A DNA stretch of 64,000 nucleotides from an uncultured Bacilli bacterium (GTDB taxonomy: Bacteria > Bacillota_I > Bacilli_A > RF39 > UBA660). Positions 2,784-58,311 of this stretch are shown here, one piece after another. Each line of letters begins with the position of its first letter. Within the stretch, counting starts at the first letter, position 1. The translations under genes and the position numbers were made by a program. The stretch lies in the NCBI GenBank assembly GCA_934091055.1, contig CAKOKN010000002.1, forward strand, positions 77,446-141,445, given 5' to 3'. The notes under the pieces were generated by a model that saw only the letters and a program-made list of their open reading frames with translations, ran no database searches and was not told the DNA's origin.

Positions 2784-3551
2784 TTGGACGAAATAGAAAA
2801 ATTAAATGAGAGTAAGCTCCAATCCAAAGAAGATATTAATAGAATAGTCTACACAAATGGTTTATATGATAACGAAGAAGACACTTATATATCAATTGCT
2901 GACATAGTAGGATACGATTATAGCTGGAGAAACTCCAGGGACATAATTCTAAGTTTTGATAATTATTTCAATAAACAAGGAACAAACTATCAAACAAGAA
3001 GCATAAGTATGCTTAATTATTCATCAGAAGAAATAATTGACGGCTTAAGCAAAAGTTTTATAAAAGAACCAATTTGTATTCAAGAAGCCGAAAGAGGAAT
3101 ATATACAATATCCACAAATGGACTACACAGATATACCATTTTAAAAATACATTATTTAAACGATTTAATCAAATCCACATCAGCCTCTTCAAGAAGATCA
3201 CTAAAAGAAAAATATAAAATACCAGTAAGAAGTCAAAAAATTAATTACATTAAAACATACTGCAATTATCTACTAGATACATTCTTTTCTATAGACCTAT
3301 ATCAAGAGAGAGATGAGAAAGGCAGAACAACCGGAAAAACTAAAATCATTTCTGAAAAAAAAGAAATTGTTATGACTGATGAAGAATTAATAAAATACAC
3401 AAGAGAAAAGCTAAAAAATGTAGATCCTGTATTATATGAGAATGCCGAAAAAGCCGTATCATTAAGAAGCGAAAAGTACCAAAGCTTTCAAAAATTTATT
3501 CAAGAATACTTTTCTGATATATTTAAATCAAAGAAAGGAAGATTGTTATAA
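2784..3551 (+). CDS. hypothetical protein with a ParB/sulfiredoxin-fold-like motif
   Basis: EPICIQEAERGIYTISTNGLHRYTILK resembles the ParB-like nuclease core (compact strand, then (D/N)G-x-HR). The frame is open from 2688 but has no ATG/GTG before TTG 2784, so the start is uncertain (an AGGAG lies at 2726-2730). Confidence 0.45.
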   Translation: MDEIEKLNESKLQSKEDINRIVYTNGLYDNEEDTYISIADIVGYDYSWRNSRDIILSFDNYFNKQGTNYQTRSISMLNYSSEEIIDGLSKSFIKEPICIQEAERGIYTISTNGLHRYTILKIHYLNDLIKSTSASSRRSLKEKYKIPVRSQKINYIKTYCNYLLDTFFSIDLYQERDEKGRTTGKTKIISEKKEIVMTDEELIKYTREKLKNVDPVLYENAEKAVSLRSEKYQSFQKFIQEYFSDIFKSKKGRLL

Positions 3552-44926: not shown

Positions 44927-45430
44927 ATGAGGTATAAAGTATTTAATAATAGTGATGCACAAAATCAAATACCACCCAAAATATATAAAATAATATATAA
45001 ACTTATTATAGAAAATTACGGTATAAGAGCTAAACTTAATAAAGAAGAATTAAAAAAGATAGATACAATAACAGCATATAATAACTGGGTTAATATGATT
45101 TTTACAACAAAGGATTATTATATAACTGTATTTTTTGATGAAAACAAGATTATAGGCTTTATAGCGTTTATGTACGATAAAAGAGGTTTGTGTTTATCCG
45201 AAGTCCAAATTAATAAGGATTATCAGGGAAAAAATAATAATTTGAGAAAAATGATAAAGATAGTATTAGATAATTGTGAAAAACAAAAGAGTAAAAAAAT
45301 TTACGTAACAATAAATCCAAAAAACACAAAATCAATAAATGTATTCACACATATTGGATTTTATAACACAGAAGGAAAAATTTATGAAATAACATATAAT
45401 AATTTGCAAAAATGGTTAGATAAAAAATAA
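44927..45430 (+). CDS. GNAT-family N-acetyltransferase
   Basis: IGFIAFMYDKRGLCLSEVQINKDYQGKN and a C-terminal NTKSINVFTHIGF pattern typical of GNAT. Confidence 0.65.
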   Translation: MRYKVFNNSDAQNQIPPKIYKIIYKLIIENYGIRAKLNKEELKKIDTITAYNNWVNMIFTTKDYYITVFFDENKIIGFIAFMYDKRGLCLSEVQINKDYQGKNNNLRKMIKIVLDNCEKQKSKKIYVTINPKNTKSINVFTHIGFYNTEGKIYEITYNNLQKWLDKK

Positions 45431-45549
45431 CTGATAACTGTTATAAAATATGTGATTAATACTAAAGAATTATTAATCTAAAACTTATTAAAATGTATTA
45501 TTAAGTTAAAAGAGTATATTTTATGGTATAATAGTTCTAGGAGGTAAAT

Positions 45550-45879
45550 ATGGAAAGAATATATAATAAATTAGTTAGAGATAATATTCCTAATATAATA
45601 AAAGATAAGGGAGAAGAACCTATTACTAGAATATTATCAGATAAAGAATACAAGCAAGAATTAGAAAAGAAATTAAATGAAGAATATCAAGAGGTATTAG
45701 AAGCAAGTGGCAGTGATAGAGTAGAAGAACTAGCAGATATGCTTGAAATAATAAAAGCACTAGGAGAATTAGAACATACTTCATTAGAAGAAATAATAAA
45801 TATAGCTAATACTAAAAGTAGTAAAAGAGGAGCTTTTAAAGATAAAATATTCTTAGAGAAAGTAATAGAAAAAGATTAA
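45550..45879 (+). CDS. MazG-like / PRA-PH-like nucleoside triphosphate pyrophosphohydrolase (small all-alpha type)
   Basis: YNKLVRDNIP N-terminus and the E-x-x-E...E-x-x-D metal motif (EEYQEVLEA ... VEELADMLEII). Confidence 0.7.
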   Translation: MERIYNKLVRDNIPNIIKDKGEEPITRILSDKEYKQELEKKLNEEYQEVLEASGSDRVEELADMLEIIKALGELEHTSLEEIINIANTKSSKRGAFKDKIFLEKVIEKD

Positions 45880-45916
45880 ATAGTATGATAGAATAATATC
45901 AAGAGGTGAAGATAGT

Positions 45917-47086
45917 ATGAAATGTATACTTATGAATAAGAATACCAAAGTTTTATTAGCAGATTATCAACCATCATTAGGAGTATTTACTGATATCTAT
46001 GACATTTATAATATAGATTATGCTCCAGTAATACTAAAGAATATTTATAATAAAGAAAAAGATTTAAAAGTAATACTATCCAACTGGTTCAAAGGTAGAG
46101 GTATTCCATTATGGAGAGACGATTTAGATTTATTACTTACTAAACTAAATATTTCTGCTCCAACAGAATTATTAGATAAAGCATTTGGATTGTCATTATC
46201 AGATCAGTATTGGATTAAACCATATAATTCCCAAATAGAATATAGAGATATTAACTTCTTTGAACACGACTTTAAAGACGCTGAATTTGCTGACGCTACT
46301 TTTTCAAATAGTGCTAAAACAGATACTAAAATAAGTTTGATTTCTCCTAATAATACAACTGATGGTAGATTGAAGAAAACCTGGATAATCGAAGATAACA
46401 AAAGATATCTATTAAAGGGTGGCTATAAAAACGAAGTATTGCAGCCTTTTAATGAAGTTTTAGCTTCAATGATTAGTAGTCGTCTAGGATTTAATAATGT
46501 TCCATATACTCTAGAAGTAATTAATAATAAAATAGTATCAAAGTGTGAATGTTTTATAAATAAAGATACTGAATTGGTTCCAGCATATCAAATATTATAT
46601 GATAATTGTGACAGAGATAATGCATATGAAAGATATATCAATATATTGGAAGAACATAAAGTAGAAAATGCCAGAAGTTCTCTAGAAGATATGTTTATCT
46701 TAGATTATATTATGTTAAATGAAGATAGACATCTAAATAATTTTGGCATAGTTAGAAATGTTGAAACATTAGATTGGATTTCTCCTACGCCAATATTTGA
46801 TACTGGAGAATCATTAAATATAATAGATTATAGTGATGAAGAAGTAATAATTAATGGCGACGGAAGATTTTTTTATAAAGTTAGTAACTTTGACAATATA
46901 CTTGACAATATTAAAGATTTAAAAAGATATGATTTAAATAAACTAGATGGCATTTGTGAGGAAGTTGATGAATTATTACATAAGTACCAATCAATTACTA
47001 ATATGACTGATAGAAGAATAAATAAAATATGTACTCTACTTTACAGTAGGATTAATAAATTAAAAAAGAAGATAGATAGTAAATAA
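45917..47086 (+). CDS. HipA-family serine/threonine kinase-like protein
   Basis: HipA_C catalytic loop LNEDRHLNNFG and Mg-binding PIFDTGES. No HTH partner gene is adjacent. Confidence 0.75.
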   Translation: MKCILMNKNTKVLLADYQPSLGVFTDIYDIYNIDYAPVILKNIYNKEKDLKVILSNWFKGRGIPLWRDDLDLLLTKLNISAPTELLDKAFGLSLSDQYWIKPYNSQIEYRDINFFEHDFKDAEFADATFSNSAKTDTKISLISPNNTTDGRLKKTWIIEDNKRYLLKGGYKNEVLQPFNEVLASMISSRLGFNNVPYTLEVINNKIVSKCECFINKDTELVPAYQILYDNCDRDNAYERYINILEEHKVENARSSLEDMFILDYIMLNEDRHLNNFGIVRNVETLDWISPTPIFDTGESLNIIDYSDEEVIINGDGRFFYKVSNFDNILDNIKDLKRYDLNKLDGICEEVDELLHKYQSITNMTDRRINKICTLLYSRINKLKKKIDSK

Positions 47087-47141
47087 TAAAAAAATACTTG
47101 TATTTATTAACATAGTTGTGTTATAATATAGGTGTCTTGAG

Positions 47142-47170
47142 AAAAGAGTGGCATAAAAATCCACTCTTTT
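47142..47170 (+). promoter_or_regulatory. terminator-like leader hairpin of the rimP-nusA-infB operon
   Basis: AAAAGAGTGG-CATAAAAAT-CCACTCTTTT (10-bp perfect stem) followed by an A/T-rich tail. It lies between a TATAAT (47122-47127) and the rimP RBS. Confidence 0.5.
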
Positions 47171-47189
47171 ATATATATAGGAGGGAAAT

Positions 47190-47441
47190 ATGAATATTGA
47201 AGAACAAGTAAAAAAACTAATTGAAAAGGAAGTAGAAAAGCTAGGAGTAAGAATAGATAGTGTTAAATTAGAAAAAGAAGACAATAATCTTTTTCTAAGA
47301 GTAGTTATCGATAGAGATGAAATAATAGATGTTGATAAATGCGTAGAAGTAACAAATGTCATTAATCCATTGTTAGATGAAGCTAACTTAATAGAAGACT
47401 CTTATATGCTAGATGTGTCTACTAAAGAGAAGGGAAGATAA
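47190..47441 (+). CDS. rimP: ribosome maturation factor RimP, N-terminal domain only
   Basis: LFLRVVIDRDE...YMLDVST matches the RimP N-domain up to the usual LEVSSPG motif. It stops there, and nusA starts 2 nt later. Confidence 0.75.
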   Translation: MNIEEQVKKLIEKEVEKLGVRIDSVKLEKEDNNLFLRVVIDRDEIIDVDKCVEVTNVINPLLDEANLIEDSYMLDVSTKEKGR

Positions 47442-47443
47442 AA

Positions 47444-48511
47444 ATGAATCAAAAACAAATGAAAGAATTTATGAAAGCATTAGATGCTATTATCGAAGAG
47501 AAAAAAGTAGATAGAAAAATAGTTATTGATGCAATGGAACAAGCTATGGCAGCAGCTTATAAAAAGAATGAAGGTATACCTAATGTATTGGCAAAAGTTG
47601 ATGATGAAACTGGAGATATAAGAATATATTCATATAGAACAGTAGTAGAAGAAGTTACTAATCCTGAAACTGAAGTATCATTAGAGGATGCTAAAAAAGA
47701 AGTAGACGATATCGAATTAGGAGAAACTATAATTGATAAAGAACTACCTCTTAAAGATTTTGGAAGAGTAGCAGCAGGTACTGCTAAACAAATAGTAGTT
47801 CAAAGAATCAAAGAAGCTGAAAAAGAAAGCATTTCTGAAGAGTTCAAAGATAAAGATGGCGAACTAATGGTAGGAACATTATCTCGTGAAGATCAACATA
47901 ACTACTTTGTTGATTTAGGTAGATGCAGTGGTATTTTACCAAAAGATCAAATAATACCAGGAGAAAAATTACAAATGGGTTCTTCTGTAAAAGTATATGT
48001 ATCTAAACTAGAAATTGGACCTAAAGGACCATTCATTATGCTATCTAGAAGTCATTATGGTTTTCTAAAAAGATTATTAGAAATAGAAATACCAGAATTA
48101 ACAGATGGTACAGTAGTATTATATTCAGTAGCTAGAGAAGCAGGAAGTAGAAGTAAAATAGCAGTATACACTGAATACAATAACGTAGACCCATTAGGAG
48201 CTATTATAGGTGAAAAAGGAAGAAGAATAGCAAACGTATTAAAAGAACTAAATGGTGAAAAAATAGATGTTATTCTATATGACAAGGATCCTGTAAAATT
48301 TATTACTAATGCTTTAAGTCCTGCTAAAAACGTTAAAGTAACAATTAAAAATGAAGAAAAGAAAGAAGCACTAGCATTAGTAGATGATAGTAACTTATCT
48401 CTAGCAATAGGAAGAAAAGGACAAAATGTTAAATTAGCATCTCGTCTTACACATTACAAAATTGAAGTAAAAAGTGAAAGTACTACTGAGGAAGAAAAGG
48501 ATAGTGAATAA
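47444..48511 (+). CDS. nusA: transcription termination/antitermination factor NusA
   Basis: NusA N-domain, S1, and two KH domains (IGEKGRRIANV, IGRKGQNVKLA). Confidence 0.95.
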   Translation: MNQKQMKEFMKALDAIIEEKKVDRKIVIDAMEQAMAAAYKKNEGIPNVLAKVDDETGDIRIYSYRTVVEEVTNPETEVSLEDAKKEVDDIELGETIIDKELPLKDFGRVAAGTAKQIVVQRIKEAEKESISEEFKDKDGELMVGTLSREDQHNYFVDLGRCSGILPKDQIIPGEKLQMGSSVKVYVSKLEIGPKGPFIMLSRSHYGFLKRLLEIEIPELTDGTVVLYSVAREAGSRSKIAVYTEYNNVDPLGAIIGEKGRRIANVLKELNGEKIDVILYDKDPVKFITNALSPAKNVKVTIKNEEKKEALALVDDSNLSLAIGRKGQNVKLASRLTHYKIEVKSESTTEEEKDSE

Positions 48512-48513
48512 CT

Positions 48514-48771
48514 ATGAAAAAAACTCCTCTTAGAAGATGTGTAGTAACAAAAGAACAACTTCCTAAGCAAGAATTATTAAGAGTTGTTAAAAATAAAGAA
48601 AACAAAATATTTGTTGATGAAACAGGAAAAGCAGGAGGTAGAGGAGCATATATTAAAAAAGATATAAATGTTCTAGAAACTGCTAAAAAGAAAAAGATTT
48701 TAAATAAAATATTTGACTGTGAAATAAATGAAGAATTATATGATGAAATTAAAAATATAATAAATAAATAA
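48514..48771 (+). CDS. ylxR: YlxR/RnpM (DUF448) RNA-binding protein
   Basis: PLRRCVVTKE and GRGAYI motifs, in the conserved position after nusA. Confidence 0.85.
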   Translation: MKKTPLRRCVVTKEQLPKQELLRVVKNKENKIFVDETGKAGGRGAYIKKDINVLETAKKKKILNKIFDCEINEELYDEIKNIINK

Positions 48772-48786
48772 TAGGAGGTGATACAT

Positions 48787-50886
48787 ATGATGAATGTATC
48801 AGAATATGCAAGTGATGTAGGGTTAGAAGTAAAAGATATCTTAAGTTTGTGTAAGAAGCTTGATATTAATGTATCTAAAGAAGAAGATATGTTATCTGAT
48901 GATGACATAATAATATTAGATCAAGAGATTGCTTCTAGTATTGATAGTCAAGATGAAGATTTACAAGAAGAGATGGAAACCTTCGAAGATTCTTATGAAG
49001 AGGAATTAGAACCTGTTACAGAAAAGAAGCCTAAGAAAAAAGTAGTTTCAAAAGAAGATAATAAATCATCATTTAAAGAAAAAAGAAAAGAAATGTATAA
49101 ACATAAAGAAAAACTTCAATCTAATGTTATTGAAGACAATGAGAATACTGTTTTATACAAGGATAATATGACTGTGTCAGAGCTTGCTACTAGTCTAGAA
49201 GTTAATCCAACACAAATAATCAAAAAGTTAATGGCACTTGGTACTCTAGCAGCTATTAATGCACCTCTTGACTTTGATACAGCAGAAATAATTGTATCAG
49301 ACTATGATAAAGTATTAAAGAAAGAAAGTACTAGAGATGAAGTTAATTTTGAGGGCTTAGAAATAGTAGATAAAGAAGAAGACTTAGTAGAGAGACCTCC
49401 GGTAGTTACTATTATGGGTCACGTAGATCACGGTAAGACTACCCTTCTAGATACTATTAGAAAGACCAATGTTGCAGAAGGTGAAGCTGGAGGTATAACT
49501 CAAGCAATTGGAGCATATCAGATTGAATATAAAGGAAAGAAAATTACTTTTATAGATACTCCAGGACACGCAGCATTTACTGAAATGCGAGCAAGAGGAG
49601 CATCTATTACTGATATAGTAATTATTATTGTAGCTGCAGATGATGGAGTAATGCCTCAAACAAAAGAAGCAATAGATCACGCTAAAGCAGCAGGTGTTCC
49701 AATTATTGTAGCAGTTAATAAAATAGATAAACCTGCAGCTAATGTTGAAAAAGTATTAACTGAAATGTCAGCTAATGGTCTTCAACCAGAAGCTTGGGGT
49801 GGAGACATAATGTTTGTTAATTTATCTGCTAAAACAGGTGAAGGAATAGAAGATTTACTAGAGAGAATTCTACTTCTTAGTGAACTTGGTGAATTGAAGG
49901 CTAATCCTAATAGATATGCCAGTGGAACTGTAATTGAATCAAAAATAGACAAAACATCTGGAGTAATTACTAATCTTCTCATTCAAAATGGAACACTAAG
50001 ATTAGGTGATCCAATAGTAGTAGGACTATCTTCTGGTAAAGTAAGAACACTAAAAAATGATAAGGGTGAAGACTTAGTAGAAGCTTCTCCATCTATGCCA
50101 GTGTCAATAACAGGATTATCAGAAAGCCCCGCAGCCGGAGATAAATTTATGGTCTTTGAAAGTGAAAAGAAAGCTAAAAAAGTTGCTGAACAAAGAAGAG
50201 AAATTGCTAAAGAAGGAAGAAATAAACCAAAAGCTGCAGTATCTTTAGATGACCTATTTAATAGAGTAAAAGATGGTGAAAAAGAAATCAATATCATCTT
50301 AAAAGCAGATGTTAAAGGTAGTGAAGAAGCAGTTAAAAATTCCCTACTTAAGTTAGATGTAGAAGGAATAAAAATAAATGTCATTAGAAGTGGTATTGGA
50401 GGTATATCTGAAAGTGATGTAGTACTTGCAGAAGCTTCAAATGCTATAATAATTGGTTTTAATATTAGACCAGATCATAAAATAACAGAATTAGCTAAAG
50501 AAAAAGGAATAGATATAAGACTATATGACATAATATATCAAGTAGTTGAAGAAATGGAAGCTGCTCTAAAAGGAAAACTAGAACCAGAATATGAAGAAAA
50601 AGTATTAGGATCAGCAGAAGTAAGAAAAATATTTAAATTTTCTAAAGTTGGTACTATTGCAGGATCTTATGTAGTGTCAGGCAGTCTAAAAAGAGGAGCT
50701 AAAGCTAGAGTAATAAGAGACTCTGTAGTAATAAATGATAGTACTATTGCTAGCTTGGCAAGAGAAAAAGATCAAGTAAAAGAAGTAAAACAAGGTATGG
50801 AATGTGGTATTACTATAGATAACTTTAATGATATCAAAGAAAAAGATATAATTGAAGCCTATGAATTAGTGGAGATAAGAAAGTAG
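48787..50886 (+). CDS. infB: translation initiation factor IF-2
   Basis: G domain [27 protein letters not shown] at 48773-48778 favours ATG 48787. Confidence 0.95.
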
Positions 50887-50897
50887 GTGGGTATTGT

Positions 50898-51389
50898 ATG
50901 TTTGAAGAATCTATAACAGAAAAAGGTAAATGTAATCAAGGTAAAAAGAGTAGAAAAGAAATAGGTCAAAACGCTTTAAATATGATCGAAGCTAAAATGA
51001 AAAAACAAGAGGATGAAAAAAGAAAAAAAGAATACTTTGATAAATTTGGAAAGAATGCTCAAGGGCCTATTGTAAAAGGAACAGAAGATAGATTACTAGG
51101 TATCTATGAAATAAATAAGTTTGAAAATATAAAAGAAAGAAATAGTTATACTTATGGTTTCACAGAACGTGGAGAAAGACAGTTAGCATCAAACATCAAT
51201 AATTTTACTAAAGAAGAATTAAAGGCGATAGGGAGAAATGACTTTATCTCAGGTATTAAAATTAAAGAATTACCTGAAGAAATCAAAGAGAATAAAGACT
51301 ATCAAGAAGGATATTATAAAGCCGCTGAAGAGCAAATAATGTCTATTCTAAATAGTTATAAGGGAAAGAATAAACATAAAGGTAAATAA
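50898..51389 (+). CDS. hypothetical charged protein, paralog 1 of 3
   Basis: RBS AGGTGG. Shares FDKFGKNAQGPIVKGTEDRL and YTYGFTERGERQL blocks with the next ORF. No family recognised. Confidence 0.7.
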   Translation: MFEESITEKGKCNQGKKSRKEIGQNALNMIEAKMKKQEDEKRKKEYFDKFGKNAQGPIVKGTEDRLLGIYEINKFENIKERNSYTYGFTERGERQLASNINNFTKEELKAIGRNDFISGIKIKELPEEIKENKDYQEGYYKAAEEQIMSILNSYKGKNKHKGK

Positions 51390-51404
51390 AGGTAGGTAAT
51401 AAAA

Positions 51405-51980
51405 ATGTCAGAAAATAAAAGCAGAATATATAAAGGCCCTAAAAGAGATGAAATATCTGATGTAGAAGGTAGCATTGCTATGAGTGCTCTACATCAGGAA
51501 AAGCTATATAAACAAAAATTTGAAAAGTATGGATATGGTAATAATAACAAAAACATTGTACAAGGAACTACTGCTAGACTATCAGCTTTTCCTTATCCTA
51601 AAGATACAAGTGTTATAAGTGATGTAAGAGCATTTCACTACGGCTACTATGAAAGAGGAGATAGATTTCTAAAGATACTTGTAGAAACTGGAAAAACAGA
51701 TGCTCCTATATTAAATGAGAATTTAAAGCTAATTTACAATGAAATAAATGCTTTATATGGAATAAAGGAAGATGAAGTACCATTTGATTCTCTATCTGAT
51801 GCTGCTAAAGTTCAAGAAAGATTAAGAATGATTGGCTATGTTGATGGACTTGATGGAGAAATTGATATAAATAAACTAGATGAAGTAGTAAGAAATAATC
51901 CGTGTTATAGTCAAGGTTATAATCTAGGAGAGAGCATATCAGAAGAGCATAATAAACAAAGTGGTAAGAAAGGAAGATAA
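51405..51980 (+). CDS. hypothetical charged protein, paralog 2 of 3
   Basis: FEKYGYGNNNKNIVQGTTARL and FHYGYYERGDRFL align with paralog 1; a C-terminal YSQGYNLG block recurs in all three. Confidence 0.7.
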   Translation: MSENKSRIYKGPKRDEISDVEGSIAMSALHQEKLYKQKFEKYGYGNNNKNIVQGTTARLSAFPYPKDTSVISDVRAFHYGYYERGDRFLKILVETGKTDAPILNENLKLIYNEINALYGIKEDEVPFDSLSDAAKVQERLRMIGYVDGLDGEIDINKLDEVVRNNPCYSQGYNLGESISEEHNKQSGKKGR

Positions 51981-51981
51981 T

Positions 51982-52323
51982 ATGTCATTAGATAAACTTA
52001 GAAAAGGAAGAAATGTAAAACGTGTCGAGGGAGATAGACATTTTGATGAAGTAATTAAGAAAGCATCTTCAGTTCCAAAAACACCTGCTAAAGAGAAACC
52101 ATATGCTTCTGAATTAAATAACTTAGGAAGAAAAGCATACTTTGATGAATATTTCTATGAAATAAAAGTAGAGGATCAAGTATTTCCTAAAATAGGAGAG
52201 TTTGAAAACCCTTCTGAAACATATAGTTTTAAGCAAGGTTATCAAAGAGGAGAATTACTAGTAAATAATGGTATAGTACCTGAAGAATATCAAAATATAA
52301 ATAATAGTAATAAACACAGATAG
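51982..52323 (+). CDS. hypothetical charged protein, paralog 3 of 3 (most diverged)
   Basis: The ATG lies 1 nt after the paralog 2 stop, preceded by AAAGGAAG. YSFKQGYQRGELL aligns with the Y-x-Y-G-x-x-ERG-x-R-x-L block. Confidence 0.65.
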   Translation: MSLDKLRKGRNVKRVEGDRHFDEVIKKASSVPKTPAKEKPYASELNNLGRKAYFDEYFYEIKVEDQVFPKIGEFENPSETYSFKQGYQRGELLVNNGIVPEEYQNINNSNKHR

Positions 52324-52333
52324 GAATGATATT

Positions 52334-52678
52334 ATGAGTATAAAATTAGATAGATTAAATCATATTCTAACTGAAGAAATATCTAAAGTAATAAGTGAAG
52401 AAGTAAAAGATACTGATGTACAATTTGTTACCATAACAGCAGTAGATATTTCTAGTGATTTATCATACGCTAAAGTATATTTTACTAATTTAATAGATAA
52501 AGATAGAGAAAAAGTAACTAAAGCATTAAATAATGCTAGTTCCTTTATCCGTGGTAAATTATTTGGTAGAGTAGAAATAAGAAAGATGCCTGAATTAACA
52601 TTCGTATATGATGAGTCAATTGAATATGGAAATAAGATTGAAAAGATAATTGAAGAAATAAAGGAAGATGGTGAGTAA
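52334..52678 (+). CDS. rbfA: ribosome-binding factor A
   Basis: RLNHILTEEISKVI and LSYAKVYF motifs; 114 aa. Confidence 0.9.
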   Translation: MSIKLDRLNHILTEEISKVISEEVKDTDVQFVTITAVDISSDLSYAKVYFTNLIDKDREKVTKALNNASSFIRGKLFGRVEIRKMPELTFVYDESIEYGNKIEKIIEEIKEDGE

Positions 52679-53628
52679 TGAACAATATTATTAGCGAAAT
52701 TAAAGTAAGCAATAATATTGTTTTACTTTGTCATAATAATCCTGATGGTGATGCTATAGGTAGTATCGTGGCCATGTATATACTATTAAAAAGATTAGGT
52801 AAAGAAGTAGATATCGTCCTAAATACTCTACCTAAAAGGTTTAACTTTCTAAAAGAGTATCAAGATATCAAGAAAGAAAGTACTAAAAAGTATGATACAG
52901 CAGTTATACTAGATACCGGAAGTATTGACAGAGTAAACAGTGCCTATTTACTTGATACTGTGTCAAAGAAACTAGTAATTGACCATCATAGGACAAATAC
53001 TATGTATGGTGATGTAAATCTAGTAGAGGACTATCCTGCTTGCTGCGAGATAGTATATAATTTAATAAAAGAAATGAATGTTAGTATTGATGAAGATTTG
53101 GCTCTTCCTCTAGCAGTGGGATTATTAACAGATACCGGAGGTTTTGCTCATAAGAATGTTCTTCCTAGTACTTTTACTATGGCTGCCGAACTATCTTCAC
53201 TAGTAGATCTTTCAGACATATATAAGAAAGTACTAAGAACTATTACCATAAATCAGTTTAATATCAAGAAGAAAGCTCTAGATAATCTAGAACTATATAA
53301 TAACAATACCCTAGCAGTTTCTTTTATAACTTCCGAAGATATGGAGAAGTATAATGTTGATGAAGATGAATGTGGTATTCTCGTAGGTATTCCTCTTGAA
53401 ATAGATACCGTTGAAGTATCAATATTCTTAAGAAAATACCCTAATCAAACTAGAGTATCCCTTCGTAGTGGTCATATTGATGTCAGTAGGATAGCCTCTA
53501 TCTTTGGAGGAGGAGGTCACATAAATGCCGCTGGTATAACAACTGTTATGCCTTATGAAGAACTAAAAGAAAAGTTAATAATAGAAGTAGGTAAGAGTAT
53601 AAATGAATGGAATAATTGTCATAGATAA
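52678..53628 (+). CDS. nrnA: DHH/DHHA1 phosphoesterase NrnA (oligoribonuclease/pAp phosphatase)
   Basis: HNNPDGDAIGS, DHH motif VIDHHRTN, DHHA1 GGGGHINAAG. Confidence 0.8.
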   Translation: MNNIISEIKVSNNIVLLCHNNPDGDAIGSIVAMYILLKRLGKEVDIVLNTLPKRFNFLKEYQDIKKESTKKYDTAVILDTGSIDRVNSAYLLDTVSKKLVIDHHRTNTMYGDVNLVEDYPACCEIVYNLIKEMNVSIDEDLALPLAVGLLTDTGGFAHKNVLPSTFTMAAELSSLVDLSDIYKKVLRTITINQFNIKKKALDNLELYNNNTLAVSFITSEDMEKYNVDEDECGILVGIPLEIDTVEVSIFLRKYPNQTRVSLRSGHIDVSRIASIFGGGGHINAAGITTVMPYEELKEKLIIEVGKSINEWNNCHR

Positions 53629-54469
53629 ACCTAAAGACTATACCAGTAGAGATATAGTAAACATAGTATCAAAAAAATTAAATACCAAAAAAGTAGGTCA
53701 TACAGGAACATTAGACCCATTAGCCACAGGTGTATTAGTACTCCCCATAGGTAGAGCCCTTAAAGTATCTGAACTCCTAACTAGTAATACCAAAGAGTAC
53801 ATTGCAGAAGTAATATTAGGCTATGAAACAGATATGTTAGATATAACCGGAACAGAAATCAAAAGAAACATACCCAGTGTAACTAAAGAAGAACTACTAA
53901 AAGTACTAAAAAGTTACATAGGTAAATATAACCAAGAAGTCCCTCTTTATTCAGCAGTCAAAGTAGGAGGAAGAAAACTATATGAGTATGCCCGCAGTGG
54001 CATTCCAGTAACTCCTCCAAGTAAAGAAGTAGAAGTATACTCTCTAGAATTAATAAGTGACCTAAAACATATAAACAATATAGTAGAGTTTACTATTAGA
54101 TGTGAAGTAAGTAAAGGAACATATATAAGAAGTTTAATTAGAGATATAGCCTATAGTTTAAATACTTATGGTACTATGAAAAGTCTCATAAGAACAAGAC
54201 AGGGAATATTTACTCTAAAAGATGCTTATACTCTAAAAGATATTGAAGAGAATAACTATAAATTACTTAGTATCAAAGAGTGCCTCCCCAATATAAAAAC
54301 TACTGTGATAGAGGAACCACTACTTACTAAAGTAAAAAATGGAATGGTACTAGATAAGTTTTTTAAAGAGAATATGTCCCTATTACTAGATAAAGAAGGA
54401 AAAGAAATAGCTATCTACATTGCTAGCGGAGATAATAAAGTAAAACCATATAAAATGATTGAGGTGTAG
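53603..54469 (+). CDS. truB: tRNA pseudouridine55 synthase TruB
   Basis: NGIIVIDKP, catalytic GHTGTLDPLATGVL. Confidence 0.92.
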   Translation: MNGIIVIDKPKDYTSRDIVNIVSKKLNTKKVGHTGTLDPLATGVLVLPIGRALKVSELLTSNTKEYIAEVILGYETDMLDITGTEIKRNIPSVTKEELLKVLKSYIGKYNQEVPLYSAVKVGGRKLYEYARSGIPVTPPSKEVEVYSLELISDLKHINNIVEFTIRCEVSKGTYIRSLIRDIAYSLNTYGTMKSLIRTRQGIFTLKDAYTLKDIEENNYKLLSIKECLPNIKTTVIEEPLLTKVKNGMVLDKFFKENMSLLLDKEGKEIAIYIASGDNKVKPYKMIEV

Positions 54470-54470
54470 T

Positions 54471-56246
54471 ATGAGTAAAATAAAAGTAATGAGTGAACTA
54501 CTATCCAATAAAATAGCAGCAGGAGAAGTAGTAGAAAAAGTAGTATCAATAGTTAAGGAACTAGTGGAAAATTCTGTTGATGCCAAAAGCACTGAAATAA
54601 AAATAGACCTAAAAGAAGCTGGTCTAAGAGAAATAGTAGTTACTGATAATGGTATAGGTATGGATAAAGATGATGCTGTTTTAGCCTTTCAAAGACATGC
54701 CACTAGTAAACTATATACCGATGATGATCTATTTAATATAAACTCTCTAGGTTTCCGTGGTGAGGCCTTACCATCAATCGCTGCAGTATCCGAAGTTCTA
54801 CTAAAGACATCACAAGGCGAAGTAGGAACAGTTGTCCACATCAAAGGTGGAAAAATACTTGAAAATAAACAAGGTGATGCCAGAAAAGGAACACAAATAA
54901 CAGTTACCAATATGTTCTATAATACCCCTGCCAGATTAAAACATCTATCCAGTCCTTATGCTGAACTAGCGGGAGTTACTGAATATGTAAATAAAATGGC
55001 CCTTTCATATCCAAGTATTAAGTTTAGATTAACTAATGATGAAAAAGAACTATTAAATACCGATGGGTCTGGTAATTTACTTAAAGTAATAAAATCAATA
55101 TATGGTCTAGAAATAACTAAAAAGATGCTTGCAATAAATGGCTCTAATGACGACTATGATGTATCAGGTTACATTTCCTTACCTGAAGTAAATAGAGCCT
55201 CAAGAAATCATATGACTGTCCTAGTAAATGGAAGAGTAATAAGAAATCAAGTACTAAATAAAGTAATAAATGACTCTTATTCATCCTTCAAAGAAGATAC
55301 CAGATATCCAATCGTGGTAATTAAAATAGATACTGATCCATCCCTAATTGATGTAAATATTCACCCTTCTAAACAAGATATCAAGTTTAGTAATTTTGAA
55401 GATTTAAAAACACTTATATCAACCCTAATTGTGGATACAATAAAAACAAAATTATTAATACCAAAGATAGAAGTAAAAGAAGAACCACAAGTAAAGTATG
55501 AAAATTTAGCATTAAATTTAGATCGAAATATCATAAATGAACCAAGTGAAGTAAATCCTGATAAAGAAAGATTAACTAATTTAATTAACTTTAACTATGA
55601 ACAAAATAATGAATATGATAAAGAAGAGGAAGAAGAATATATTGAAGAAAGACCTAAAGATACCCTTCCTGAATTATATCCTATTGGACTAGCCTTAGGT
55701 ACATATATAGTATGTGAAAATGAAAGAGGAATCTATCTGATAGATCAGCACGCAGCAGAAGAAAGAATTAATTATGAAAGAAATTCATACTTACTTGCCC
55801 ATCCCAGTGGTAATACCATAACGCCTCTTATTCCTATCATAATAGAACTACCTAATAATGAGTTTATAAAAGTAAAAGAAAATATTGATATTTTAGATAG
55901 TTTAAATATCAAAGTAGAAGAGTTTGGTAGTAATTCATATCGTATTCTATCACATCCTACTTGGTTTACTAAAGGTAGAGAAAAAGAGATAATATCTAAA
56001 ATATTTGAAGATATAACAAATAAAGGTAAAGATTTTAGTTTAGCTAAATTTAATGATAATTTAGCTAAATTAGTAAGTTGTAAAATGAGTATTAAAGCTA
56101 ATACTAGAATAACTAAAGAAGCCCAAGAAGAGATAATTAATAAACTTAGAAAGTGTAATAATCCATTTAATTGTCCTCACGGAAGACCTACTATAATACA
56201 TTTTACTACTTATGAAATAGAAAGAATGTTTAAAAGAGTAGTATAA
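54471..56246 (+). CDS. mutL: DNA mismatch repair protein MutL
   Basis: GHKL ATPase motifs IAAGEVVE, ELVENSVDA, DNGIGM, FRGEALPSI, and the C-terminal endonuclease motif region. GAGGTG favours ATG 54471. Confidence 0.93.
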   Translation: MSKIKVMSELLSNKIAAGEVVEKVVSIVKELVENSVDAKSTEIKIDLKEAGLREIVVTDNGIGMDKDDAVLAFQRHATSKLYTDDDLFNINSLGFRGEALPSIAAVSEVLLKTSQGEVGTVVHIKGGKILENKQGDARKGTQITVTNMFYNTPARLKHLSSPYAELAGVTEYVNKMALSYPSIKFRLTNDEKELLNTDGSGNLLKVIKSIYGLEITKKMLAINGSNDDYDVSGYISLPEVNRASRNHMTVLVNGRVIRNQVLNKVINDSYSSFKEDTRYPIVVIKIDTDPSLIDVNIHPSKQDIKFSNFEDLKTLISTLIVDTIKTKLLIPKIEVKEEPQVKYENLALNLDRNIINEPSEVNPDKERLTNLINFNYEQNNEYDKEEEEEYIEERPKDTLPELYPIGLALGTYIVCENERGIYLIDQHAAEERINYERNSYLLAHPSGNTITPLIPIIIELPNNEFIKVKENIDILDSLNIKVEEFGSNSYRILSHPTWFTKGREKEIISKIFEDITNKGKDFSLAKFNDNLAKLVSCKMSIKANTRITKEAQEEIINKLRKCNNPFNCPHGRPTIIHFTTYEIERMFKRVV

Positions 56247-56332
56247 GTAAGAGCCCAAGGTCTCTTACTTACATAAAAAGCCTCAGGTCTTTTTATGTTA
56301 ATTTAGAGCCTATTATATAGTCTCTAAATTAA
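56244..56332 (+). repeat. three-hairpin intergenic element, locus 4 (all three units intact)
   Basis: TAAGTAAGAG-cccaaggt-CTCTTACTTA (56244-56271), CATAAAAAG-cctcaggt-CTTTTTATG (56272-56297), stem TTAATTTAGAG / CTCTAAATTAA around cctattatatagt (56298-56332). Confidence 0.7.
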
Positions 56333-56371
56333 AAAATATTTATATTGCAAAGAAGAATATTCATATAAGAC

Positions 56372-56402
56372 AAAGACAAGAATCAAATAATCTTGTCTTT
56401 TT
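56372..56402 (+). terminator. intrinsic terminator upstream of miaA
   Basis: AAAGACAAGA-ATCAAATAA-TCTTGTCTTT followed by TT. Confidence 0.7.
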
Positions 56403-56444
56403 ATATTATCTATGATATATTAATCTTACAAAAAGGAGTAATCT

Positions 56445-57332
56445 ATGAATAAAGTAATTGTTATAACGGGACCTACAGCGGTAGGTAAAACTAAATTGAG
56501 TATAGAATTAGCTAAAAGATATAATGGTGAAATAATAAATGCTGATGCTGTCCAAGTATATAAAGGATTAGATATCGGAAGTGCTAAAGTAACTGAAGAA
56601 GAAAAAGAAGGTATTCCACATCATCTATTTGATATTAAAGAAGTAGATGAAGAATATACAATTTATCATTATCAAAAAGATTGTCGTAAATTAATTAAAG
56701 AAGTCCAGGATAGAGGAAAAACTCCCATTCTAGTGGGAGGTACAGGTCTATATATAAAAGCGGCTCTCTATGATTATAAATTAACTGAAGAAAAAGAAAC
56801 TAATACTTATGATAATCTAACTGATGAAGAATTATATAATAAACTATTAGAACTAGATAAAAACATAGTAATAGATAAAAATAATCGTCGTAGATTAATA
56901 AGAGCTATTAACTACTATAAAGAAAATAATAAGTCTATTAATACTAATACTACTAATAAATTACTATATGATGCTATATTTATTGGTTTAACAACTGATA
57001 GAGGAATATTATATGATAAAATAAATAATAGAGTGGATATTATGATTAAAGAAGGTTTACTTGATGAAGTAAAAGCTTTTTATGATAAAGGTATTAGAAC
57101 TAAACCACTACTTAATGCCATTGGTTATAGGGAAATATATTCATACTTTGATGGTAATATATCTCTTGAAGAAGCCATAGATAAAATAAAACAAAATTCA
57201 AGACATTATGCCAAAAGACAATATACATTCTTTAACCATCAACTACCAATAGTATGGTTTGAAACAGATTACAATAACTTTAATAATACAATTAAAGAAG
57301 TTGAAGAGTATATAAAGAATAGTTCAAATTAA
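56445..57332 (+). CDS. miaA: tRNA dimethylallyltransferase
   Basis: P-loop ITGPTAVGKT, VGGTGLY motif. Confidence 0.92.
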   Translation: MNKVIVITGPTAVGKTKLSIELAKRYNGEIINADAVQVYKGLDIGSAKVTEEEKEGIPHHLFDIKEVDEEYTIYHYQKDCRKLIKEVQDRGKTPILVGGTGLYIKAALYDYKLTEEKETNTYDNLTDEELYNKLLELDKNIVIDKNNRRRLIRAINYYKENNKSINTNTTNKLLYDAIFIGLTTDRGILYDKINNRVDIMIKEGLLDEVKAFYDKGIRTKPLLNAIGYREIYSYFDGNISLEEAIDKIKQNSRHYAKRQYTFFNHQLPIVWFETDYNNFNNTIKEVEEYIKNSSN

Positions 57333-57346
57333 TCTTGAACTATTCT
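57317..57346. terminator. bidirectional terminator shared by convergent miaA and gpsA
   Basis: AGAATAGTTCAA-ATTAAT-CTTGAACTATTCT. The arms encode the last codons of both genes; a T run follows. Confidence 0.6.
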
Positions 57347-58311
57347 TTTTCTATAAGAAACTTAGTTAAATTACTAGGTTCTTTTTTATTTATAATAATA
57401 TCATAAATAAGATCAATAATAGGCATCTCTATATTTTTATTATTTAATAATTTTCTAATAGATTTTAAAGTATATAATCCTTCAATAGTATTATTATTAA
57501 TATAGTAATCAATCTCTTCAGCACTCTTTCCTTCACCAATCAACTTACCTAAAGTGTAATTTCTACTTTTAACTGAAGTACAAGTAAGTAATAAATCTTC
57601 AAAACCCGCGAATGAAAGAATTGTCATTTTATTACCACCAAGTGCATTTATCAAGTTTTTAATATCGTGAAGTGACTCTGTAATTAGCATAGCACTGGTA
57701 GAATCAGGATATCCCATACCAGTAATCATACCTGAAGCTATAGCTATAACATTCTTTATAGCTCCACATAGTTCTGTACCAACAATATCATCAGTAGGTC
57801 TTAACTTCACATAATAATTATGCATAGCCTTCATTACTATTTCTTTTGTTTTATCATTATCAGTAGCTAAGCTAAGTCCTATAGGTACTTTCTTAACTAT
57901 ATCAACTGCAAAGGTACCACCAGATATAACAGCAATTTTATTAGTATTAATATTCTTTTTAACTACATCATATAAAAATAAACAAGTATTTTGTTCTATT
58001 CCTTTTGAGGCGATACATATTGTTTGCTTATTATCATAGTATTTAGCAAGCTCTCTACTAACATTATCCACAAACTTCGCAGGAACTACCATAACTATAA
58101 TATCACAGTTAGAAGTAGCTTCTTTCATATCATTAGTAATACAAATATCTTTAGGTAATTCATAATCTATCTTTGGACTTTTTCTATCATTAATTAAAAG
58201 ATTTTTCTCTTCTTCACTATTAGTCCACATCTTTATAGAACAATTATTATTATAAAAGATACTAGCAAGTGCTATACCATAAGCTCCTGTTCCTAATATA
58301 CATATTTTCAT
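57340..58311 (-). CDS. gpsA: NAD(P)H-dependent glycerol-3-phosphate dehydrogenase
   Basis: N-terminal ILGTGAYGIALA Rossmann motif and the conserved GAIKNVIAIA segment. Confidence 0.9.
   Translation of the reverse strand: MKICILGTGAYGIALASIFYNNNCSIKMWTNSEEEKNLLINDRKSPKIDYELPKDICITNDMKEATSNCDIIVMVVPAKFVDNVSRELAKYYDNKQTICIASKGIEQNTCLFLYDVVKKNINTNKIAVISGGTFAVDIVKKVPIGLSLATDNDKTKEIVMKAMHNYYVKLRPTDDIVGTELCGAIKNVIAIASGMITGMGYPDSTSAMLITESLHDIKNLINALGGNKMTILSFAGFEDLLLTCTSVKSRNYTLGKLIGEGKSAEEIDYYINNNTIEGLYTLKSIRKLLNNKNIEMPIIDLIYDIIINKKEPSNLTKFLIEKE

Follow-up and report, generated by a model that had tools for sequence, protein, structure and literature searches.

Two new protein families encoded between infB and rbfA in a reduced-genome clade of gut bacteria

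The rimP-nusA-infB-rbfA operon is among the most conserved of bacterial gene neighbourhoods. Which genes, then, could a bacterial clade have fixed at the very centre of it, and do their products belong to translation at all? We examined this question in a 64,000-nucleotide (nt) stretch of DNA from an uncultured Bacilli bacterium (the window, to whose positions all coordinates refer), where a cassette of three open reading frames (ORFs) separates infB, which encodes the initiation factor IF-2, from rbfA. The cassette genes belong to two families, here called AB and C, which are restricted to the reduced-genome gut clade RF39/CAG-302 and vertically inherited at one fixed slot. An initial annotation, made from the letters of the window, had described three packed ORFs of 163, 191 and 113 amino acids (aa) filling the gap between infB and rbfA, and their coordinates and spacing were borne out:

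ORF1, 50898-51389, + strand: 163 aa; divergent short-form (B-type) member of the AB family; isoelectric point (pI) 9.2; tail KGKNKHKGK
ORF2, 51405-51980, + strand: 191 aa; long-form (A-type) member of the AB family, that is, the B form with an insert of ~40 aa
ORF3, 51982-52323, + strand: 113 aa; member of the C family; ATG at 51982; ends in NKHR

Two protein families and a predicted fold

The three ORFs are packed tightly, with gaps of 11 nt between infB and ORF1, 15 nt between ORF1 and ORF2, 1 nt between ORF2 and ORF3 and 10 nt between ORF3 and rbfA (which begins at 52334). Each is preceded by a purine-rich motif resembling a Shine-Dalgarno (SD) sequence (GGTGGG, AGGTAGG and AAGGAAG, respectively). 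Terminator-like sites on the + strand were absent from 46800-57600, and promoter-like sites around the cassette were rarer than expected from shuffled sequence, in keeping with the earlier proposal that every ORF has its own ribosome-binding site (RBS) and that neither a terminator nor a promoter lies between them. A scan of the cassette region with Rfam matched no RNA element, and its GC content of 27-31% equals that of the flanks. The encoded proteins are very hydrophilic (grand average of hydropathy of -0.8 to -1.25) and, as had been anticipated, contain no stretch resembling a transmembrane segment or signal peptide, the maximum 19-aa Kyte-Doolittle mean being <=0.37; the peptide strings quoted in the initial annotation are all present in the translations. 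The ratio of nonsynonymous to synonymous substitution rates (dN/dS) is 0.07-0.45 in informative pairs, indicating purifying selection on the cassette. ORF1, ORF2 and ORF3 are genuine, selected protein-coding genes.

By sequence comparison, ORF1 and ORF2 are true tandem paralogs and together define the AB family. BLASTP aligns them with an expectation value (E) of 2e-6, hhalign of the two family alignments gives 96.5% with an E of 9.6e-10, and the hidden Markov model (HMM) of AB recovers ORF1 at E 3e-38 and ORF2 at E 5e-36. ORF2 is of the A type, whose members measure 195-203 aa in relatives and share 40-47% identity with it, and the best match of ORF1 is with the B proteins of relatives (151-153 aa), over the full length at E 1.8e-11. 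AB proteins share the motifs G..DRL, [YF]xxG[YF], IGxND and LPxxIxxNxxYxxGY, and their near-invariant residues are, in ORF2 numbering, R58, G80, Y168, G43, G54, D147 and G171. An internal repeat inside AB is weak (29%).

The initial annotation had considered all three ORFs mutually related. This stands for ORF1 and ORF2. ORF3, for which such kinship is not demonstrated, represents a separate C family: its pairwise E is 0.016 against ORF1 and 0.77 against ORF2, and the hhalign probability between C and AB stays at 9-16% when deep profiles are used (11% when C is compared with just the C-terminal half of AB). What the two families have in common is a collinear pair of segments (AYFDEYFY in C, SYxYGYY in AB), a [YF]xxGYxxG motif and a basic C-terminus. 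The likeness of ORF3 to AB appears to be a collinear motif echo; an AB protein may have given rise to C through its C-terminal half, although neither this descent nor homology as such is demonstrated. C is a well-conserved family of 107-121 aa with 25 invariant columns across 23 sequences, and the core motifs of ORF3 are GRKAYFDEYFY and GYQRG..LV..G.VPEEYQNI. Both families have a median pI of 8.8-8.9; in 81 of 88 AB proteins the last residue is R or K, most often as part of KHR, and C ends in NKHR.

Searches in sequence databases agreed with the earlier statement that the proteins cannot be assigned to a known family. Scans of the three ORFs against Pfam, NCBIfam, PHROGs and PADLOC gave no significant match, with no PADLOC model at E<=0.1 and nothing beyond noise at E>=0.1 in PHROGs, and PDB searches with sequence profiles (A, C and deep AB profiles) returned nothing below E 0.2. 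A Pfam scan of 73 AB members likewise matched no family; Glyco_hydro_108 (4 of the 73, best E 0.003) and Taw22 appeared sporadically below threshold and were judged noise. Homology to a characterised family unrelated to translation was looked for and not found in these searches, and IMG/VR yielded no confirmed relative of the A or C proteins on viral contigs. The genes are not described in the literature that we searched, and relatives are annotated only as "hypothetical protein". Word-indexed searches retrieved just a handful of unnamed metagenomic relatives, and an alignment of five B-type sequences found nothing in the JGI metagenomes; exhaustive HMMER searches with the AB profile recovered 90 representatives (50% clusters) at E<=1e-3, 38 of them at E<=1e-10. 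Most representatives are 150-190 aa long; fused doubles, at 221-264 aa, are few, and P0033 (264 aa), P0086 (247 aa) and P0043 (221 aa) belong to them.

An AlphaFold model from a 6-sequence alignment reached a predicted local distance difference test score (pLDDT) of 53 and was discarded, whereas the model of ORF2 from 73 sequences reached a pLDDT of 92 and a predicted template modelling score (pTM) of 0.81; this rise points to a real co-evolutionary signal in the alignment. The predicted ORF2 protein is compact and all-alpha, with seven helices (residues 14-42, 48-59, 74-95, 104-117, 132-149, 160-163 and 166-185) followed by a disordered basic tail. Foldseek, the comparison that the initial annotation had proposed, found no structural neighbour for this ORF2 model, the best E being 0.97 in PDB and 0.63 in BFVD with a template modelling (TM) score of ~0.2. 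AB proteins are modelled as soluble, and their predicted fold is new, resembling no structure solved so far. The two protein families and the predicted fold are new, as no known family, domain, solved structure or predicted viral structure matches them.

A single slot in the RF39/CAG-302 clade

We collected 80 related loci, which represent 12 or more divergent lineages within the gut clade RF39/CAG-302, by 12 context look-ups covering the most divergent clusters and by two collection scans, one of genomes and one of metagenomes. The AB and C HMMs were then run, for the window and the loci alike, on each ORF of 50 aa or more from either strand. AB and C genes lie solely between infB and rbfA in all 80 loci and in the window. 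The expectation that homologs always occupy this position was therefore confirmed, and the set behaves as the lineage-specific, operon-embedded group that had been suggested, with a single slot in every context recovered and no copies elsewhere in these loci. The absence of characterised homologs and of viral relatives, together with purifying selection, further supports its description as lineage-specific, unassignable and embedded in the operon. The neighbours of the cassette are housekeeping genes in all loci, and no toxin, effector or mobility gene is found among them. Matches in the genome collection come from metagenome-assembled genomes labelled uncultured Bacilli, "uncultured Tenericutes UMGS1185" and Clostridium sp. 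CAG:302. CAG-302 is a family of the order RF39 (PMC7676259), and RF39/CAG-302 genomes are small, at ~1.1 Mb, with cassette-bearing contigs of 1.10-1.16 Mb.

The general layout is infB-AB(1-2)-C(0-2)-rbfA, in which C invariably closes the cassette on the rbfA side and every complete locus has at least one AB gene. The order B-A-C of the window is unusual, relatives having A-B-C. Other variants hold A and C only (L026), A and B only (L007), a single AB gene (L027), or AB followed by two C genes (L079), and in L067 an in-frame deletion within A (3269-3487 of that locus) removes roughly residues 56-178.

The genes around the cassette follow the order rimP(N)-nusA-ylxR-infB-ORF1-3-rbfA-nrnA-like-truB-mutL-miaA on the + strand:

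rimP (N-terminal domain only), 47190-47441, + strand: 83 aa; Pfam PF02576 (RimP_N) alone
nusA, 47444-48511, + strand: Pfam assignment
ylxR/rnpM-like gene, 48514-48771, + strand: infB directly next, no ylxQ
infB (IF-2), 48787-50886, + strand: Pfam IF2_N, GTP_EFTU and IF-2; conserved upstream anchor of the cassette
rbfA, 52334-52678, + strand: PF02033; conserved downstream anchor of the cassette
nrnA-like DHH/DHHA1 gene, 52678-53628, + strand: Pfam; would continue the same transcription unit
truB, 53603-54469, + strand: overlaps or abuts the nrnA-like gene

The operon lacks ylxQ and the C-terminal half of RimP, as noted at the outset from the window. This holds for the clade: RimP consists of the N-terminal domain only (66-83 aa, PF02576) in every cassette-bearing genome of the clade examined, nusA starts 2-4 nt past the rimP stop codon in the clade loci, and ylxQ is missing between ylxR and infB there too.

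Some further features of the region can be added. The start of infB is ambiguous: its ORF opens with a GTG at 48778 (MIHMMNV...), but on identical contigs the gene has been called from the ATG at 48787 (699 aa), and it is this ATG that has the best SD-like motif (AGGAGGTG) 5′ of it. Downstream, mutL overlaps or abuts truB (53603-56246), so that the operon appears to span rimP to mutL, ~9 kb, without a + strand terminator. The sole sizeable gap, of ~200 nt (56247-56444), lies 5′ of miaA, and a palindrome with a 12-bp stem is located there (56242-56273). Between RNase J and rimP (44927-47086), the window carries a GNAT acetyltransferase (167 aa), a PRA-PH/MazG-like protein of 109 aa and a HipA-like kinase of 389 aa, the last matching the PADLOC candidate defence family PDC-M03A at E 3.6e-16. 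This interval is a variable islet beside the operon, and relatives such as L012 carry only the 109-aa gene.

What could the cassette do at this position? Possibly, and this is the reading to which we tentatively give preference, AB and C serve the small ribosomal subunit as accessory factors peculiar to this lineage, with a part in 30S maturation or initiation. We infer this association with the ribosome or translation from operon context, as guilt by association. Because the genes are tightly packed, have RBSs of their own and are not interrupted by a terminator, the cassette would share a transcript, and be coupled in translation, with IF-2 and RbfA. Its proteins would hold the operon slot of DUF503/YlxP of other Firmicutes and would act late in 30S maturation or in initiation. 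RNA binding is plausible from the basic median pI and the basic tails of both families, and the flexible C-terminal tail, typically ending in K-H-R, could be the element that contacts rRNA. The proteins may also compensate for the lost RimP C-terminal domain; in E. coli this domain sits at the h44 site and makes contact with RsmA (PMC8177701).

Divergence of the cassette and rival explanations

The cassette evolves very differently from the genes that surround it. Between sister species, nucleotide identities are as follows:

Flanks (rimP, nusA, infB, rbfA, nrnA, truB and mutL): 92-100%
A: 72-82%
B: 69-82%
C: 78-91%

Synonymous divergence (dS) in the cassette is 0.5-1.0, versus 0.08-0.3 in the flanks, and across the clade the identity of AB proteins falls to ~25% while that of IF-2 stays at ~80%. 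Alleles are also mosaic: L012 and L023 share 98-99% identity in A and B and 86% in C, L015 and L021 share 90% in C and 72% in A, and L057 carries a recombinant N-terminus of C. Hypervariability within species was considered and rejected, since one species keeps the cassette 99-100% conserved throughout 22 strains; A has 99.3-100% nucleotide identity in these strains, and its protein is identical in 19 of the 22.

Recombination is also visible in the window. Positions 52115-57342, comprising the 3′ part of ORF3, rbfA, nrnA, truB, mutL and miaA, are 93-96% identical in nucleotides to L012, L021 and L023-L025, whereas the same contigs are only 77-84% identical to the window in RNase J, rimP-infB and gpsA; outside the segment, identity with the L012 group is ~80% overall. 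The RbfA protein of the window is 100% identical to that of the L012/L021/L023-L025 species. This segment of ~5.2 kb looks like a recent homologous exchange between lineages, with breakpoints inside ORF3 and at the end of miaA. The contrast between cassette and flanks may thus in part reflect homogenisation of the flanks by inter-species recombination, which is seen here directly.

Several of these observations weigh against an accessory ribosomal role. Fast divergence that includes synonymous sites, combined with mosaicism, is atypical of core translation factors and commoner in conflict or recognition loci. Single members are dispensable in some lineages, as in L067, L026, L007 and L027. With a pI of 6.0, ORF2 is acidic to neutral and fits a simple RNA binder poorly. 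The truncation of RimP, for its part, may be a mere trait of the clade without functional link, given that the loci sampled all lie within it. With evolution so unusually fast and mosaic, the cassette could also serve a function outside translation.

The alternative that survives best, although we consider it unlikely, is that the cassette is a passenger driven by conflict, that is, a fast-diversifying and recombining module that serves something other than translation (for example a set of immunity proteins, antitoxins or decoys, or proteins guarding the initiation machinery against effectors of phages or competitors) and draws its expression from an essential operon. It would account for a cassette so much more diverged than its near-identical flanks between sister species (66-82% identity in A and B and 76-91% in C where the flanks share 94-99%), with dS raised 3-10 fold and AB identity so far below that of IF-2, for the mosaic alleles of L012-L023, L015-L021 and L057 and the breakpoint inside ORF3 of the window, and for the variable copy number (1 to 3), the swapped order (B-A-C for A-B-C) and the fused double-length proteins. 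A module of this kind is harder to reconcile with one fixed slot throughout the clade, no adjoining toxin, effector or mobility gene, no match in PADLOC or PHROGs, no relatives on viral contigs and a dN/dS below 1. Conservation within species gives no sign of diversifying selection within populations, which also counts against it, and the homogenisation of the flanks may explain part of the contrast on which it draws.

Structural ribosomal proteins, as stoichiometric constituents of the mature RF39 ribosome, are a doubtful explanation, less probable again. Small size, a mostly basic character with a basic C-terminal tail, tight coupling within a translation operon and at least one AB gene in each lineage seen are all features that such proteins would have. 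However, the genes lie outside the ribosomal protein clusters, evolve at very high rates, vary in copy number and lose paralogs; ORF2 is acidic to neutral, and for a newly recruited ribosomal protein a compact globular fold with seven helices and 150-200 aa is large. Slightly further down our scale of likelihood, and quite improbable, stands a combination of conflict and translation, in which the cassette would be a recombining, rapidly diversifying interface within the IF-2 operon, formed by a new class of proteins that bind the initiation or 30S-maturation machinery and whose turnover between species is driven by conflict, for example as a guard or decoy of IF-2 or of the 30S subunit against effectors of phages or competitors.

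That the cassette represents highly diverged copies of familiar residents of the operon (YlxP/DUF503, a YlxQ/L7Ae-like protein or the missing RimP C-domain) is very hard to maintain. It gains some appeal from ylxP of Bacillus, which lies in the same slot, and from a lineage devoid of both ylxQ and RimP_C. Still, no DUF503, L7Ae or RimP_C match was obtained in Pfam at E<=10 for ORF1-3 or at E<=0.1 for the 73 members, and the confident model is all-alpha, with no PDB match by profile or Foldseek. The DUF503, L7Ae and RimP_C families are alpha/beta or beta-rich, and with the wrong fold class and no matches this explanation is largely refuted. Spurious or decaying ORFs, which an ORFan-like, K/E/N-rich and low-complexity look and the exclusive annotation as hypothetical proteins might evoke, are scarcely credible against intact frames in more than 80 loci, dN/dS below 1, invariant columns, a high-confidence model driven by co-evolution, and RBSs. 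Insertion of foreign DNA or a prophage was rejected on the grounds of a GC content equal to that of the flanks, the lack of viral relatives and the fixed synteny.

Significance and comparison with known systems

The carriers of the cassette make up an entire clade of abundant uncultured human-gut bacteria, one that has fixed one to four extra genes centrally in this operon and from which half of RimP has disappeared. Should the cassette products work at the ribosome, they would represent novel factors of 30S maturation or initiation, and an instance of reduced genomes rewiring ribosome biogenesis. If they do not, extreme divergence beside near-identical neighbours would point to an unrecognised conflict or recognition system within a housekeeping operon. 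A conflict interface with the initiation machinery would mean that an essential translation operon has a defence-like module wired into it. For either case, AB offers a well-defined experimental target, with clear motifs, a compact predicted fold and a conserved K-H-R tail.

Among known systems, the nearest by position is YlxP (DUF503, PF04456), whose small gene separates infB from rbfA in Bacillus subtilis and in many Firmicutes. Like the cassette proteins, it is small and cytoplasmic, occupies the infB-X-rbfA slot and has a presumed link to translation or the ribosome by context. DUF503 proteins have ~90 aa and an alpha/beta ferredoxin-like fold; AB differs in showing no sequence similarity to YlxP, in its all-alpha model and in its length of 150-200 aa. 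A further difference is that the cassette consists of one to four rapidly evolving genes from two families.

A second comparison is with the immunity or antitoxin arrays of polymorphic toxins, which resemble the cassette as small, soluble, helical tandem paralogs with fast divergence, mosaicism and variation in copy number. The cassette differs from such arrays in having no adjacent toxin or mobility gene, in its fixed housekeeping locus and in the lack of any match to defence or phage families.

In a broader sense, the cassette recalls lineage-specific small basic proteins of the ribosome or associated with it, such as bS22/SRA, bTHX and the mitoribosome-specific proteins. These are usually much shorter or unstructured. 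They share with AB and C a restriction to particular lineages, a mostly basic character and basic termini that possibly contact rRNA.

A further comparison is with RimP's C-terminal domain and the late 30S assembly factors (RimP, RbfA and RsmA; PMC8177701), which share an operon with the cassette. AB differs from the RimP C-domain in lacking homology and in its predicted fold class, and a functional link between them is purely inferential. A replacement factor is nevertheless conceivable, since the domain that the clade has lost is exactly the one that occupies h44 and contacts RsmA.

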